A stretch of 64,000 bases of DNA from a virus, in IMG/VR virus record IMGVR_UViG_3300045988_089718, positions 1 to 64,000 of that record; one strand, written 5' to 3'. Within the stretch, counting starts at the first letter, position 1. Each line of letters begins with the position of its first letter. Below, piece after piece: positions 4,379 through 7,824 of the stretch. The notes below the pieces were generated by a model, which was not told where the DNA came from, did not search any database, and saw only the letters and a program-made list of their open reading frames with translations. The translations under genes and the position numbers were made by a program.

Positions 4379-4459
4379 ACGGAGTTCGCTTAATGGTTAG
4401 GGCACCTCACTTCCACAATTCATAGAGAGGGTATATTGGTTCGAATCCTTTACTCCGTA
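4379..4459 (+). tRNA. tRNA-like gene, non-canonical (about 18-nt loop in the anticodon region)
   Basis: Acceptor ACGGAGT/ACTCCGT pairs perfectly; D arm GCTT-AATGGTTA-GGGC; T loop TTCGAAT. The only stem in the anticodon region is CCTC/GAGG enclosing 18 nt. Architecture shared with 4890-4970. Confidence 0.5.
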
Positions 4460-4483
4460 CTAATATTAAAAAGATTGAGTAAT

Positions 4484-4834
4484 ATGAAAAAGATTATCTT
4501 ATTGATGAGTTTTATTGTATTAACTACAATAGCTCATGCGTTTAATTACGGTTCTATCACTATTTATCAAGATGGTGAATGGGGCAAGCCATTATATATT
4601 AAAACTTCAGTAGTATATAATAAGGCTAGAAAAACTATTACTTTTAGTAATAGTAAGTTTGGTAAAATGGTATTAAAAATATACTCTTCTGAAATGAAGG
4701 ATGGAGTAGAAATCCATAACTGTGGAGAGGTTAATACAGGGAGACGCTTTGTTGTCTTTATTACAGTGAGGAATAAAATTCCTTATGTGACTCTTAGTAC
4801 TTCCGCAGATACCATGTTTTCATTTGGCTTTTAA
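4484..4834 (+). CDS. secreted hypothetical protein (116 aa)
   Basis: Internal ATG giving signal-peptide-like MKKIILLMSFIVLTTIAHA. The 4436 start in the ORF track lies inside the preceding tRNA-like gene, so the later start is preferred. Confidence 0.5.
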   Translation: MKKIILLMSFIVLTTIAHAFNYGSITIYQDGEWGKPLYIKTSVVYNKARKTITFSNSKFGKMVLKIYSSEMKDGVEIHNCGEVNTGRRFVVFITVRNKIPYVTLSTSADTMFSFGF

Positions 4835-4889
4835 GTTTCCATAATAATGTGTTAACGTTTTACTAGTTTTCCGATATAAACTAGTACTT

Positions 4890-4970
4890 ACGGTAGTAGC
4901 TCAGTGGTTAGAACATCTCTTTATATAGGTCATTTCGAGATGGTCATTGGTTCGAATCCTTTCTACCGTA
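4890..4970 (+). tRNA. tRNA-like gene, non-canonical (about 17-nt loop in the anticodon region), paralog of 4379-4459
   Basis: Acceptor ACGGTAG/CTACCGT pairs perfectly; D arm GCTC-AGTGGTTA-GAAC; stem ATCTC/GAGAT encloses 17 nt; T arm ATTGG-TTCGAAT-CCTTT. Confidence 0.5.
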
Positions 4971-5214
4971 CAAATTCAATTTGATAGAGATGGAGGTGAG
5001 ATCTTCAATTATTAGATAGCTTGGCTAACTATCAATAGTTTCGTTTAAAATGCTCATTTATGTAGAATTTCTACAATCACCAGCCATGATTTGAGAAGAC
5101 CCTATCATTTTAATAGAATTTGATATATTGTTAATGTGTATAATAATCCTGACTAATAAATCTATTAGTATGGGTAGGTGTTACCACTATTCTCCTTACA
5201 GAAATGTGGGCTAT

Positions 5215-5287
5215 GGAGATATAGCTTAGAAGGTCAGAGCGCGGGACTGAAAATCCCGAGATTGTGGTTCGATTCCACGTGTCTCCA
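5215..5287 (+). tRNA. tRNA-Phe (anticodon GAA)
   Basis: Acceptor GGAGATA/TGTCTCC; anticodon stem CGGGA/TCCCG with loop CTGAAAA; T loop TTCGATT. Confidence 0.85.
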
Positions 5288-5291
5288 CTAT

Positions 5292-5381
5292 GTACGGATG
5301 CCTGAGTGGTCGAAAGGGTAGGTCTCCAAAACCTACAGAGACGAAAGTTGAACAACGTAGGTCCGAATCCTACTCCGTATG
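5292..5381 (+). tRNA. Type II (long variable arm) tRNA with apparent anticodon CCA
   Basis: Acceptor GTACGGA/TCCGTAT; 3-bp D stem; anticodon stem TAGGT/ACCTA with loop CTCCAAA; about 22-nt variable arm; T arm GTAGG-TCCGAAT-CCTAC (C at position 55). Confidence 0.6.
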
Positions 5382-5404
5382 CAAATAAATCAAATAAATA
5401 AAAT

Positions 5405-6019
5405 ATGGTAAATTGGGATAATGAAATTGAAAAGCTAAAAGACTATGTATTTACATAGAAACTTTCTTATGAAGAAATTGGTAGAATTTATAATTGTACT
5501 GGTGGCAACATAAAGAAAGTAATGCAGAGAAGAGGTATAGAATTACCTATTCGATCTAAAAATGCAGGAAAAGAACCTATTAATAAAGGTACTGGCAAAA
5601 AATGTTATTGTTTAAACTGTGGTAAAGATATTACAGATGCCAGAAATACTACCCATAAATATTGTTCTAATAAATGTCAACGTGAATATGAGTATAAACA
5701 ATGGGTTCAACAATATAAAGAAGATAACTCTATAGCTAAATCTACTAAATGGGGTTAGATACCTGGTCATTTAAGACATTATATATTTGATAAATTTGAT
5801 AACAAGTGTTGTATATGTGGTTGGTCAAAAATAAATCCCTACACAAATACAATTCCTTTAGAAATTGATCATATAGATGGAAATTCAGAAAATAACTCAG
5901 AAGATAACTTAAGATTAATATGTCCTAACTGTCATTCTCTAACCTCTACTTATAGAGGAGCTAATAGAGGTCAAGGAAGAAATATTACTTGGATTATTAA
6001 AGATAAATCTGCCCTCTAA
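5405..6019 (+). CDS. HNH homing-endonuclease-like protein; reading frame contains two in-frame TAG codons (5456-5458 and 5756-5758); either TAG-recoded or a pseudogene
   Basis: Single frame from ATG 5405: MVNWDNEIEKLKDYVFT-TAG-KLSYEEIGRIYNCTGGNIKKVMQRRGIELP...KSTKWG-TAG-IPGHLRHYIFDKFDNKCCICGWSKINP...EIDHIDGNSENNSEDNLRLICPNCH. The classic HNH motif (CxxC...HID..N...N...CxxCH) lies entirely downstream of the second TAG. Confidence 0.6.
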
Positions 6020-6133
6020 GCTTTAAGGTGAAGCACGAAACTTTTAATTTCGGGAAGACAGGTCAGTACTGTCAGGGGGTACTCCACATCTATTTTCGTT
6101 TTAGTCAAAATTTAAAATTAGACAAAAATCAAA

Positions 6134-6162
6134 GATTCTTGGTCTGCGATAGATAGAGAATC
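6134..6162 (+). repeat. Hairpin family member A3: stem GATTC/GAATC around loop TTGGTCTGCGATAGATAGA
   Basis: Conserved loop, covarying stem; lies just 5' of tRNA-Glu. Confidence 0.65.
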
Positions 6163-6167
6163 TACTT

Positions 6168-6240
6168 GGCACTATCGTCTACCTGGTTAGGACGCCACTC
6201 TTTCAAGGTGGAAAAACGATTTCGAGCATCGTTAGTGCTA
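6168..6240 (+). tRNA. tRNA-Glu (anticodon TTC)
   Basis: Acceptor GGCACTA/TAGTGCT; anticodon stem CCACT/GGTGG with loop CTTTCAA. Confidence 0.8.
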
Positions 6241-6316
6241 CCCTTTAAATAAAACTAATACGATTAATGTTTAAGATATAAAGTCAGCGGACTTTATAAC
6301 GTTAAAGAGTTGTTAG

Positions 6317-6342: not shown

Positions 6343-6348
6343 TTTATT

Positions 6349-6436
6349 GGAGAAATGACTGAGCGGTCGAAAGTGGCACCCTGCTAAGGTGTTAGTCATG
6401 TTATGTGGCTCGAAGGTTCGAATCCTTCTTTCTCCG
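6349..6436 (+). tRNA. tRNA-Ser (anticodon GCT), type II
   Basis: Acceptor GGAGAAA/TTTCTCC; anticodon stem GCACC/GGTGT with loop CTGCTAA; long variable arm; T arm AAGG-TTCGAAT-CCTT. Confidence 0.85.
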
Positions 6437-6442
6437 CTATAT

Positions 6443-6513
6443 TGGGTTATGGTGTAATGGTAGCACTACAGATTTTGGTTCTGTCAGCTCCAGTTCGAAT
6501 CTGGGTAGCCCAA
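6443..6513 (+). tRNA. tRNA-Gln (anticodon TTG)
   Basis: Acceptor TGGGTTA/TAGCCCA; D arm GTGT-AATGGTA-GCAC; anticodon stem ACAGA/TCTGT with loop TTTTGGT; T arm TCCAG-TTCGAAT-CTGGG. Confidence 0.75.
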
Positions 6514-6520
6514 CAACTTA

Positions 6521-6598
6521 CAGGTGACTTACGGTGTGGGAACCGTTATCTATTAAAGATATATAGCCCATGGGCATTAGCCTAAGGAGTTCGAATCT
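6521..6598 (+). tRNA. tRNA-like fragment (T arm GGAG-TTCGAAT-CTCT and D-arm-like ACGG-TGTGGGAA-CCGT; no pairing acceptor found)
   Basis: tRNA-like local elements but no consistent cloverleaf by hand; needs tRNAscan/Infernal. Confidence 0.25.
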
Positions 6599-6796
6599 CT
6601 AAGCCTGACAATTTTAATAGGTACTAAACAACTCTCAGTAACTCTATTAAATAGCGTAATTACCTTAAAATTAATCATTTGAGTTAAAAAGAGAAAGAAC
6701 GTTAGATAGCTGAGGACAATGGAATAGTTTAAATATAACCAGTGAAAATCGCCTATTATTTAAATAGATTATTAACACATTAATTATAGATAAATT

Positions 6797-7186
6797 ATGA
6801 CAAGACAAGATTATTTTGTTAGAAAAACCAATTTAATAGCACAAATAGAAAGTGCTAAGAAGTTTGGTTGTAAAAATGTACTTAAGTGTGCTAAATTAGA
6901 TTTAGCCAAGCTTGAAGAAAAGTACAAAAAAGAACATCTTTCTAATCCTCTGTTCAGTTACATGGTAACTGATGAAGAAATGGATGAGCTTATTAGAAAT
7001 GATGAAAAGCCTACATTTAAAATTAAAGTAACTTTCAAAAGTGGTGAAGCTTATGATTTAATGTTTTACCATGAACTTAAAAGTGGAGTTAAACATTCTG
7101 ATGTTGTGAAATGGGCGATGAAAGGGTTAATTAAAACTATCTATCATCCTGAAAATATTGTAGATGCTCGTTTTATTATGGGTTAA
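6797..7186 (+). CDS. hypothetical protein (129 aa)
   Basis: ORF embedded in the tRNA cluster. Confidence 0.5.
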   Translation: MTRQDYFVRKTNLIAQIESAKKFGCKNVLKCAKLDLAKLEEKYKKEHLSNPLFSYMVTDEEMDELIRNDEKPTFKIKVTFKSGEAYDLMFYHELKSGVKHSDVVKWAMKGLIKTIYHPENIVDARFIMG

Positions 7187-7191
7187 GAGAT

Positions 7192-7551
7192 ATGGAAATA
7201 AAAACAATACAAATTGATTCTGATACATTTTTAGTGTTTAAGGGACGAGAGTACAGACAGATAAACATAGAAGACATTGTATGTTTAAAAACATCTGGTA
7301 AATATAGTACTATAATAGATGTTCATGGCTATAAAATTGATGTGTGTTGTTCATTAAAAGAAATTACACATGTTTTATGTATTGATTTTATTCTTGCAAC
7401 ACAAGGATTTTTGATAAATCATAAATACATATCTGAGATAATTAGAAAGAATGATGAAAATAATACATATATCTTAAAATTAAATGATGATATTCATACA
7501 ACTGTGGATATTTCACTACATATAGCTACAAACATGTTAAAACAATTGTAA
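7192..7551 (+). CDS. hypothetical protein (119 aa)
   Basis: ORF embedded in the tRNA cluster. Confidence 0.5.
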   Translation: MEIKTIQIDSDTFLVFKGREYRQINIEDIVCLKTSGKYSTIIDVHGYKIDVCCSLKEITHVLCIDFILATQGFLINHKYISEIIRKNDENNTYILKLNDDIHTTVDISLHIATNMLKQL

Positions 7552-7590
7552 TACCATAATAGTTTAAGGTTTATAAAATAAATATTGTTG

Positions 7591-7613
7591 GCAACTAGCA
7601 GATAATTAGTTGC
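7591..7613 (+). repeat. Palindrome GCAACTA-GCAGATAAT-TAGTTGC upstream of tRNA-Leu; copy 2 of the 4274 element
   Basis: Near-identical roughly 30-nt block with the same position relative to a tRNA start. Confidence 0.6.
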
Positions 7614-7618
7614 TATCT

Positions 7619-7704
7619 GGCTCAGTGGTGGAATTGGTAGACACGAGGGACTTAAAATCCCTTGACCAGGAATGGTCGTGCAAGTTCGATTCTTGTCTGA
7701 GCTA
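7619..7704 (+). tRNA. tRNA-Leu (anticodon TAA), type II
   Basis: D loop TGGTGGAATTGGTAGACAC typical of tRNA-Leu; anticodon stem AGGGA/TCCCT with loop CTTAAAA; acceptor GGCTCAG/CTGAGCT (G1-U72). Confidence 0.85.
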
Positions 7705-7719
7705 CAATAATAAACTAAC

Positions 7720-7824
7720 TTAAATATGGCGGAACTGGTATACGGCAGTAGATTGACGGAAGCGCCTCTAAAGTCGTCACTAAATATTTCTTGAGGATTA
7801 AGGGTTCGAATCCCTTTATTTAAG
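7720..7824 (+). tRNA. tRNA-like gene, non-canonical (105 nt; stem TGACG/CGTCA enclosing 16 nt)
   Basis: Perfect A/T acceptor TTAAATA/TATTTAA; T arm AAGGG-TTCGAAT-CCCTT; internal architecture not resolvable by hand (possible intron or long variable arm). Confidence 0.45.

Follow-up and report, generated by a model that had tools for sequence, protein, structure and literature searches.

Two classes of tRNA-like genes with non-canonical anticodon regions in the tRNA array of a large gut phage

Introduction

Non-decoding mimics of transfer RNA (tRNA) include the tRNA-like domain of transfer-messenger RNA (tmRNA), the YrlA Y-RNA-like RNAs, mascRNA, mitochondrial 'tRNA punctuation' and the stable RNA species 1 and 2 of phage T4, and a tRNA-shaped RNA has its 5' end cut by RNase P and its 3' end by RNase Z or exonucleases. 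Here we analyse three tRNA-like genes of a large gut phage, referred to as gene 1, gene 2 and gene 3 (Table 1), in positions 1 to 64,000 of IMG/VR record IMGVR_UViG_3300045988_089718; this whole stretch of 64,000 nucleotides (nt), about a third of the phage genome, is the window of the text below. An earlier note on this DNA had described the three as similar genes with perfect acceptor and T arms and 16-18-nt loops in place of the anticodon loop, and had proposed that they carry small introns or are non-canonical tRNAs or tRNA-like decoys.

Like the mimics named above, the three genes keep an acceptor/T/D module for tRNA-processing enzymes with the anticodon function gone, and they lie inside a tRNA cluster, as in T4. 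They differ from YrlA in that the 5' and 3' ends form the acceptor and from tmRNA in that there is no coding segment, and they match no Rfam family of this kind, the likeness having been checked by Rfam scan only. With the canonical tRNA (RF00005) they share features of acceptor, D arm and T loop, genes 1 and 2 even scoring above its threshold, but an anticodon loop of 7 nt is missing from all three, only 3 of the 5 T-stem positions pair in genes 1 and 2, and gene 3 is sub-threshold and contains a pseudoknot. Anticodon-arm-like pseudoknots of the H type are represented by pseudoknot I (PKI) of dicistrovirus intergenic internal ribosome entry sites and by the small aptamers preQ1-I and SAM-II. 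Gene 3 shares with these a 5-base-pair (bp) stem, a loop that pairs over 3-4 bp with a downstream strand and an A-rich third loop, and differs from them in its complete acceptor/D/T scaffold, its long L1 (6 nt) and L2 (5-6 nt) and its lack of an Rfam match.

The closest precedent, and the only one in the literature that we searched, is that of the Lak megaphages of Prevotella, whose tRNAs, Gly(TCC) among them, have introns that follow position 37 and were called 'enigmatic' (Devoto et al. 2019, PMC6784885). The Lak inserts are 79-114 nt long, identical across cohorts and equipped with an acceptor/T-arm minihelix of their own, and the tRNAs that hold them were found because they are too long for bacterial tRNA models (PMC6784885). 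As in Lak, the genes studied here are tRNA genes of a Bacteroidota gut phage with extra anticodon-loop sequence; in gene 1 the additional bases can be placed right after position 37, as in Lak Gly(TCC), with an ambiguous boundary and in a non-canonical host body (T stem, A73). Unlike in Lak, the extra sequence amounts to 5-13 nt, has neither internal structure nor a T arm, varies and leaves no conserved anticodon, whereas the Lak host tRNA is otherwise canonical. We conjecture, from the shared position and a few matching end bases, that the inserts of genes 1 and 2 are remnants of Lak-type insertions. Phage tRNAs are also known to evade anticodon nucleases by loop mutations, keeping a 7-nt loop and still decoding (van den Berg et al. 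2023, PMC10264068); the genes described here resemble them in being phage-encoded and in having anticodon loops that differ from those of the host, and depart from them in that the paper on those tRNAs describes no insertions or decoys.

We find that genes 1, 2 and 3 belong to two unrelated classes and that none of them is an ordinary decoding tRNA as encoded. Judged by compensatory changes in acceptor and T stems among relatives, they appear to be tRNA-derived genes kept by selection, all three being structured, so that the earlier option of non-canonical tRNA-like RNAs holds.

Conserved bodies and drifting loops in genes 1 and 2

Rfam 15 scans at permissive E-values covered positions 3500-12500, 4375-4985 and 7705-7840 of the window, the gathering threshold of the tRNA model (RF00005) being 29 bits. 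Both gene 1 (40.4 bits, E = 6e-6) and gene 2 (42.6 bits, E = 1.6e-6, each in a 9-kb search) exceed this threshold, as the check with Infernal called for in the earlier note could show, and their alignment to the model confines a large insertion to the anticodon loop. Plain ARAGORN reports gene 2 as 'tRNA-??? (ta)'. The two genes are indeed paralogues with an identical T arm, and their fully paired 7-bp acceptors, recognisable D arms and T loops are present as described, as are the stems enclosing 18 and 17 nt. Their T arms are not perfect: the stem AUUGG/CCUUU contains two U.U non-pairs (50-64 and 51-63), flagged by Infernal. Genes 1 and 2 have in common with gene 3 a UUCGAAU T loop, a 7-bp acceptor, a D arm with GG, a single unpaired discriminator and the absence of an encoded CCA. 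The z-scores of single-sequence folding were not significant for any of the three; structural support comes from covariation alone.

About 30 related loci were gathered with the small open reading frame (ORF) between genes 1 and 2 as anchor; L-numbers such as L001 and L244 are the labels of related phage loci compared with the window. The order gene 1, ORF, gene 2 recurs in all ~30, and in the window 5 nt separate gene 1 from the preceding tRNA-Arg and 25 nt from the start codon of the ORF, with gene 2 starting 55 nt beyond the stop codon. Both genes stand at the same positions even in phages whose flanking protein is only 66% identical. In these loci gene 1 comes in 23 variants and gene 2 in 18, and pairs were counted in an alignment of 12 sequences comprising orthologues and paralogues. 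Pairing reaches 100% in the acceptor, where 5 of 7 pairs have changed on both sides, and 98% in the D stem; the two central T-stem positions are unpaired in 12/12. In the most distant relatives, L244 and L293, the gene 2 acceptor ACGGTAG/CTACCGT has become GTGGTGG/CCACCAC through three double substitutions, and one compensatory double substitution maintains the pairing of the gene 1 D stem. The anticodon stems of both genes likewise remain paired across relatives.

The enclosed loops behave differently, measuring 12, 17, 18 or 19 nt in gene 1 and 17-21 nt in gene 2, with homopolymer (T-run) slippage. In L289 and L291 gene 1 has lost, through a 6-nt deletion, the UUCC taken by ARAGORN for a Gly anticodon; the 19-nt loop of L244 and L293 is unrelated in sequence and lacks U33-NNN-R37. 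Between the window and L244, loop identity is 55% and 63%, compared with 67% at third codon positions, 77-91% in the bodies and 90-96% in the untranslated regions (UTRs) around the ORF. No anticodon is conserved among the orthologues, and a canonical anticodon arm, with a 7-nt loop, U33, R37 and a conserved anticodon, was not found (loops of 18, 17 and 16 nt in genes 1, 2 and 3, and of 12-21 nt in orthologues). Larger deletions affect some relatives: part of gene 2 is missing between GGTCATT repeats in L010 and L243, and part of gene 1 in L030 and L242. Loops that drift at about the pace of synonymous sites within an otherwise constrained gene fit neither a decoding nor a spliced tRNA.

The same 17-nt T arm is found in other phage tRNA-like families with loops of 3-15 nt. 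Among the other phage families, L115-L117, L137 and L160 have acceptor, D and T arms identical to those of L110 and L139 and a wholly different anticodon arm, and similar families occur at L016, L003, L042, L013, L049 and L015, in gut and environmental phages, with loops from tetraloop-like forms of 3-4 nt up to 11-15 nt. Such 'anticodon-less' tRNA bodies recur in phages, making the pattern wider than this phage.

A fourth gene of the window, at 8036-8116 and absent from the earlier note, we group with genes 1 and 2 as class A. It scores 25.7 bits with the Rfam tRNA model, under the threshold, and is called by ARAGORN at a relaxed threshold; the L001 orthologue has a 6-nt loop, and orthologues in relatives are labelled 'tRNA-??? 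(tt)' by ARAGORN.

Gene 3, a separate phage family

Gene 3 had been taken as similar to genes 1 and 2, a view that its scores contradict: the tRNA model reaches 19.4 bits on the minihelix only, plain ARAGORN makes no call, and intron mode returns a poor 'Val(gac)+14 nt'. Of the supposed three tRNA-like genes, then, genes 1 and 2 pass the Rfam tRNA model but gene 3 fails it and forms a class apart. Its T arm is perfect as described, and so is its 7-bp acceptor, although the register given earlier was one base off. Rfam 15 at permissive E-values gave nothing beyond tRNA for the three loci, apart from chance-level hits to sroD (E=2) and, on the antisense strand of the T arm, to a plastid UTR.

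Scans with exact and with degenerate patterns located the gene 3 family in ~70 IMG/VR contigs, and the family comprises 42 distinct sequences, cr60_1 included. Among 50,697 GenBank phage records the family occurs only in the crAss-like phage cr60_1 (Buchavirus), where it is unannotated, and a scan of 185,579 bacterial and archaeal species, one genome each, gave three true copies, all on contigs of metagenome-assembled genomes with phage-like genes, so a host origin was rejected. The close relative L001 lacks gene 3, and its whole tRNA-Leu cassette differs; gene 3 and its tRNA-Leu form an indel relative to L001. A direct repeat, TTTATTTAAG, lies at 7815-7824, the 3' end of gene 3, and again 3 nt further on at 7828-7837, and resembles the duplication that insertion of a cassette, or recombination, leaves behind.

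Among the 42 sequences the acceptor stem exists in at least 12 versions, each with full complementarity, and the T stem in many, around an almost invariant core of ~35 nt (UG GCGG AAYUGGUAUA CGGC AGUAGAUUGACGGAAGCR CC). Across the family the acceptor is 98.8% paired, with both-side changes in 7/7 pairs, and the T stem is 100% paired, with covariation in 4/5. The D arm, UG-GCGG-AAYUGGUAUA, resembles UG-GUGG-AAUUGGUAGA of the phage's own tRNA-Leu. The discriminator may be G, A, U or C, that of bacterial tRNA-Leu being A73, and a variable-arm hairpin is found only in some members. Gene 3 belongs to a phage-specific family on a tRNA-Leu-like acceptor/D/T scaffold, one which has no Rfam match and of which we found no description in the literature.

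The anticodon and variable arms replaced by a pseudoknot

Of the 16-nt loop with CTCTAAA that the earlier note had placed within TGACG/CGTCA, the stem (helix a) and the length stand, but four of the loop nucleotides pair with 7793-7796 as helix b. The strands follow the order a<b<a'<b', the 5' strand of b lying in the loop of a and its 3' strand outside, which defines an H-type pseudoknot, with L3 between the 3' strands of the two helices. As CCUC, immediately before it, is a strand of the covarying helix b, CUCUAAA is not a free anticodon loop.

Pairing in gene 3 was counted over 25 pairs in an alignment of 23 sequences and compared with 500 shuffles. Of the cells, 91% are paired, and 16 of the 25 pairs have changes on both sides, values reached in 0/500 shuffles; when the partners are slid as a control, pairing falls to 38-55%. 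Helix a (UGACG/CGUCR) varies as GAUG/CAUC, GGCG/CGCC and GACA/UGUC, with both-side changes in 2/5 pairs, to which GACA/UGUC in window-type members is added. For helix b the pair types are CCC/GGG, CUC/GAG, CCA/UGG, CCU/AGG, CCAC/GUGG and CCUC/GAGG, with both-side changes in 3/4 pairs, and in the CCUC/GAGG of the window an extra U on one strand is matched by an extra A on the other. L3 accepts inserted hairpins in L051, L102, L227 and L228, capped by GNRA in the first three and by a 9-nt loop in L228 (GAGG UUAAAUCUU CCUC). Covariation across the family accordingly supports an H-type pseudoknot in place of the anticodon and variable arms.

The pairing GGCG/CGCC between D region and L1, seen in the minimum-energy fold, was rejected, the change from GCGCC to GCACC never being compensated. 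A candidate sarcin-ricin-like motif, AGUA/GAA, and a third helix, AGA/UCU, occupy invariant positions and so give no covariation signal either way.

Gene 3 and TAG recoding

All cr60-type loci are strongly TAG-recoded, long-ORF coverage rising from ~0.5 to 0.8-0.95 when TAG is read as sense. In each of the seven cr60-type loci read, a CUA tRNA with a CUCUAA(A/C) loop stands ~10 nt (8-11 nt) downstream of gene 3, and this suppressor comes in three structurally different forms, two of which are not called by ARAGORN.

Amber suppressors that ARAGORN does not detect lie ~10 nt downstream of gene 3 homologues in L053, L059, L087, L084 and L095. They combine a CUCUAAA loop with an enlarged D loop, non-TTCGA T loops and an encoded CCA, and represent concrete cases of the 'undetected suppressors' postulated for TAG-recoded phages. 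Elsewhere, in the environmental gene 3 carriers L227, L259, L068 and L228, long-ORF coverage goes up with TGA as sense (e.g. 0.82 to 0.98), which hints that some carriers are TGA-recoded.

The phage and its tRNA array

The window has a G+C content of 30%, and metagenome contigs nearly identical to it are 170-183 kb long. The closest GenBank relative is an unannotated 'Bacteriophage sp.' contig with ~90% identity, and short stretches also match Lak megaphages and crAss-like phages. ARAGORN finds 13 tRNAs and a tmRNA, most of the tRNAs in an array between 4300 and 8400, and the standard genetic code is mostly used in this part of the genome. The array is mosaic and rich in homing endonucleases. 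As the earlier note had reported, the cluster with the tRNA-like genes also holds an HNH gene with in-frame TAGs. There are two of these, and both must be sense for the HNH domain to be reached; the relative L241 has a second HNH gene upstream of the array. A crude stem-loop search of the window for cryptic CUA, UUA and UCA tRNAs returned noise only.

Two exact copies of a 29-nt repeat, against 0 expected, are kept in L001 and L244, and the element, heading each tRNA group, is a candidate promoter, operator or processing element. A terminator-like hairpin probably marks the end of the tRNA transcription unit. Together, the repeat at the head of each group and the single closing hairpin indicate polycistronic transcripts.

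Table 1. Positions of the tRNA-like genes and of other features of the window
Feature	Position	Strand	Description
Gene 1	4379-4459	+	tRNA-like RNA, tRNA-Gly(UCC)-type body; acceptor 4379-4385/4452-4458; D arm 4388-4403; T arm 4435-4451; discriminator A4459
Gene 1, anticodon region	4405-4430		stem CCUC 4405-4408/GAGG 4427-4430; loop 18 nt, 4409-4426
Gene 2	4890-4970	+	tRNA-like RNA, paralogous to gene 1; acceptor 4890-4896/4963-4969; T arm 4946-4962
Gene 2, anticodon region	4915-4941		stem (A)UCUC 4915-4919/GAGA(U) 4937-4941; loop 17 nt, 4920-4936
Gene 3	7720-7824	+	tRNA-Leu-derived phage RNA; acceptor TTAAATA 7720-7726/TATTTAA 7817-7823; U8 G9; D arm 7729-7746; invariant linker AGUAGAU 7747-7753; T arm 7800-7816; discriminator G7824
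Gene 3, helix a	7754-7758/7775-7779	+	UGACG/CGUCA; encloses L1, 5' strand of helix b and L2
Gene 3, helix b	7765-7768/7793-7796	+	CCUC/GAGG; closes the pseudoknot
Gene 3, loops	7759-7764, 7769-7774, 7780-7792		L1 GAAGCG; L2 UAAAGU; L3 A/U-rich
Fourth tRNA-like gene	8036-8116	+	non-canonical anticodon loop; perfect 5-bp stem CUGAG/CUCAG, 8-nt loop; 14-nt D loop; canonical T arm
Small ORF between genes 1 and 2	4484-4834	+	116 amino acids (aa); N-terminal signal-peptide-like segment MKKIILLMSFIVLTTIAHA
HNH endonuclease ORF	5402-6019		inside the tRNA cluster; two in-frame TAGs, HNH domain downstream of both
29-nt repeat TTGTTGGCAACTAGCAGAYAATTAGTTGC	4268-4296	+	4 nt upstream of tRNA-Arg
29-nt repeat TTGTTGGCAACTAGCAGAYAATTAGTTGC, second copy	7585-7613		5 nt upstream of tRNA-Leu
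Terminator-like hairpin and T run	8417-8451	+	after tRNA-Met

Several further observations concern the tRNAs of the array. At 6011-6081 a tRNA-Lys(UUU)-like gene scores 39 bits with the Rfam tRNA model and is not called by ARAGORN; it has a clean cloverleaf (z = -2.6) with a non-canonical T loop, GUCAGUA, overlaps the HNH ORF stop codon with its 5' end and is kept in L001. The 91-nt tRNA at 5292-5382 joins a Trp anticodon (CCA) to a long variable arm, that is, to a type II body, which to our knowledge has never been found in a normal tRNA-Trp. The seryl- and leucyl-tRNA synthetases (SerRS and LeuRS) do not read the anticodon, so its charging identity need not be the one that its anticodon suggests. 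The tRNA tables of Lak megaphages also include 91-nt Trp(CCA) genes (PMC6784885). In L001, an 86-nt type II tRNA with a long variable arm and anticodon UCU (3108-3193, equivalent to window positions 4301-4374) takes the place of the canonical 74-nt tRNA-Arg(UCU).

Directly 3' of tRNA-Gln, a segment of ~90 nt (6515-6605) that is not in L001 starts with ACAGG... and ends in ...CCUGACA, with a T-arm-like GGAGUUCGAAUCUCU and a pair of small hairpins in between. In this it is similar to the nested tRNA-like 'introns' of Lak phages but sits 3' of a tRNA, not within one, and the ~350 nt around it (6439-6785) are 80-81% identical to Lak phages and ~88% to several crAss-like phages. Beyond the array, the tmRNA is encoded at 24026-24356, with the tag peptide ARVINMTPAYQAAA. 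Downstream of tRNA-Leu(tag), ~500 nt without a convincing ORF (11680-12200) carry repeated GAAGTACGTT(C/T)(G/A)ATTCGTA motifs, one of them T-arm-like at 12097; the region has no Rfam match and possibly encodes a further structured RNA. A tandem array at 8986-13028 consists of at least seven small ORFs of 68-151 aa that are paralogues, most of them starting with MCW... and most of the longer ones ending in a common ...IxYTGKYxK motif.

Discussion

Our tentative leaning, which we hold at a little less than even confidence, is that genes 1-3 are tRNA-derived RNAs in which an L-shaped body is selected and the end that reads codons was abandoned or exchanged for another structure, and which are not intron-containing tRNAs of a known type. 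With the L-shaped body under selection, it is on this body that the function has to depend. Like any tRNA, the class A RNAs would be released by RNase P and RNase Z from a polycistronic transcript of tRNAs and mRNA, and their job may be to supply cleavage sites, so that neighbouring tRNAs are trimmed and the mRNA of the small ORF that they flank is released; alternatively, they could serve as tRNA mimics without a part in translation. It is the disabled loop, helped perhaps by a weak T stem, that would bar them from translation. Gene 3 may be processed like a tRNA and then act through its invariant core, as mimic or binding partner of a conserved host or phage factor, and in TAG-recoded crAss-like phages its role may be linked to the adjoining amber-suppressor tRNA.

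Several points weigh against this reading. The role as processing signal is our best guess from anatomy and synteny; a canonical tRNA would be an equally good cleavage signal, and loops that are enlarged, as opposed to merely mutated, are left unexplained. The 5' side of the gene 1 loop holds the Gly anticodon UCC in the window and GCC (UUGCCAU) in L040 and L241, which hints at recent decoding ancestry or residual function. The AUUGG/CCUUU T arm also belongs to an apparently normal tRNA-Met(CAU) of phages L008, L022 and L041, so the mismatches in the T stem are not in themselves proof of a role outside translation. For gene 3, the D stem is without covariation and has a constant G.G mismatch, many members stand alone, far from any tRNA and in some cases near terminase or portal genes, and several belong to phages without TAG recoding; its link with suppression, strong in the cr60-type clade and absent elsewhere, is confounded by phylogeny.

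Among the alternatives, an unlikely one is that the RNAs act as decoys or sponges for tRNA-targeting nucleases or other defence proteins of the host, with a body that attracts the enzyme and an abnormal, fast-changing loop that resists cleavage or follows an arms race. In its favour, the body is conserved and variation at the locus is greatest in the loop, several phage lineages independently carry tRNA-likes with abnormal loops, and the phage invests heavily in translation RNAs. Phage tRNAs also escape anticodon nucleases through loop changes (PMC10264068, PMC11555353), although the eLife paper (PMC10264068) mentions no precedent for insertions or decoys. The divergence of the loops, however, does not exceed that of synonymous sites, a pace more in keeping with neutrality than with positive selection, and they resemble no particular host anticodon loop. 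Unconstrained loops of variable length, the larger deletions in relatives and the mosaic, endonuclease-rich surroundings would also suit a distinctly unlikely view of genes 1 and 2 and of 8036-8116 as functionless, decaying tRNA pseudogenes, perhaps left by imprecise loss of larger loop insertions. Decay is at odds with the double substitutions that preserve the gene 2 acceptor and the gene 1 D stem, with anticodon stems that remain paired, with bodies more conserved than synonymous sites and with the retention of both genes beside a strongly diverged protein. An antisense-guide role was rejected: when the window was searched for sequences that match any of the three loops, directly or as complements, only the loops themselves came up, at chance level.

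That the three are functional Gly-UCC, Ile-UAU and amber-suppressor tRNAs from which very short introns are removed by some phage or host activity, as proposed for Lak, seems improbable to us. ARAGORN in intron mode (-i) does read gene 1 as Gly(tcc)+9 nt and gene 2 as Ile(tat)+10 nt, the extra bases of gene 1 begin after CUUCCA, at position 37, the site of the Lak Gly(TCC) intron, the L040/L241 orthologue offers another Gly anticodon, and Lak phages, with their published tRNA introns, share DNA with the window. Yet anticodon and insert boundaries shift or vanish among relatives, through slippage and through the loss of UUCC or of U33-NNN-R37, so that excision would give UCC, GCC, shifted registers or nothing for gene 1 and UAU, UUU, UUA or nothing for gene 2. 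The loops diverge at the synonymous rate, no bulge-helix-bulge (3-nt bulge/4-bp helix/3-nt bulge) is seen in them by eye, and inserts of 9-10 nt compare with the far longer Lak introns and their T arm. A Pfam scan of the 20 larger ORFs, in a window that is part of the genome only, identified an AAA ATPase, SPFH, NAPRTase, helicases, DnaB, NrdD, LAGLIDADG and HNH proteins and no RNA ligase, RtcB, kinase-phosphatase or splicing-type endonuclease, and an intron in gene 3 would contradict the covariation of helices a and b. Group I introns are ~200 nt or more in length, with helices P1-P9; inserts of 9-10 nt are far too short for one, and with no Rfam match at E<=1 a group I intron is unsupported. 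Least probable of all, and very improbable in our view, is that gene 3 is a cryptic amber suppressor, an aberrant tRNA reading UAG through the CUA of CUCUAAA. Window-type members do contain this motif, the HNH gene needs two UAG read-throughs, no canonical CUA tRNA lies within the 64-kb window, and undetected non-canonical suppressors are expected in ~60% of TAG-recoded phages according to the literature. Against it, however, CCUC, the would-be positions 32-34, pairs with GAGG, and the triplet varies among CUA, CUG, UUA, ACG and CCA in a loop of 15-16 nt; the discriminator is not conserved, several members serve phages without TAG recoding, the TAG-recoded cr60-type phages checked have their own CUA tRNA adjoining gene 3, and the real suppressor may be elsewhere in the genome, of which the window covers only about a third.

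For gene 3 alone we also consider, as a distinctly long shot, that the family represents tRNA mimics of a new class, acting in trans in the genetic-code switch of phages, with the 3-4-bp helix b akin to a built-in anticodon-codon minihelix. This would explain the invariant core, the site directly upstream of three forms of amber-suppressor tRNA and the mobility between tRNA cassettes, and such a mimic, if real, could engage the ribosome, a release factor or the machinery of suppressor-tRNA maturation without an mRNA codon.

While tRNA-like RNAs and phage tRNA oddities are of already known kinds, two things are new here: the class A pattern, in which the body is selected while an enlarged loop drifts, and the gene 3 family without an Rfam model; for phage tRNA-likes with 12-21-nt loops we found no description in the literature. 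Gene-finders drop phage tRNA genes that are not cloverleaves or label them pseudo-tRNAs or 'introns', and at least two such kinds appear here to be under selection, so that the tRNA counts and the 'missing suppressor' statistics of recoded phages rest on incomplete annotation. The class A genes provide a simple natural system for asking what a non-decoding tRNA body does, and the gene 3 family, a compact RNA of ~105 nt linked to an amber-suppressor tRNA in a large TAG-recoded clade of gut phages, is a candidate for the question of how these phages switch their code.

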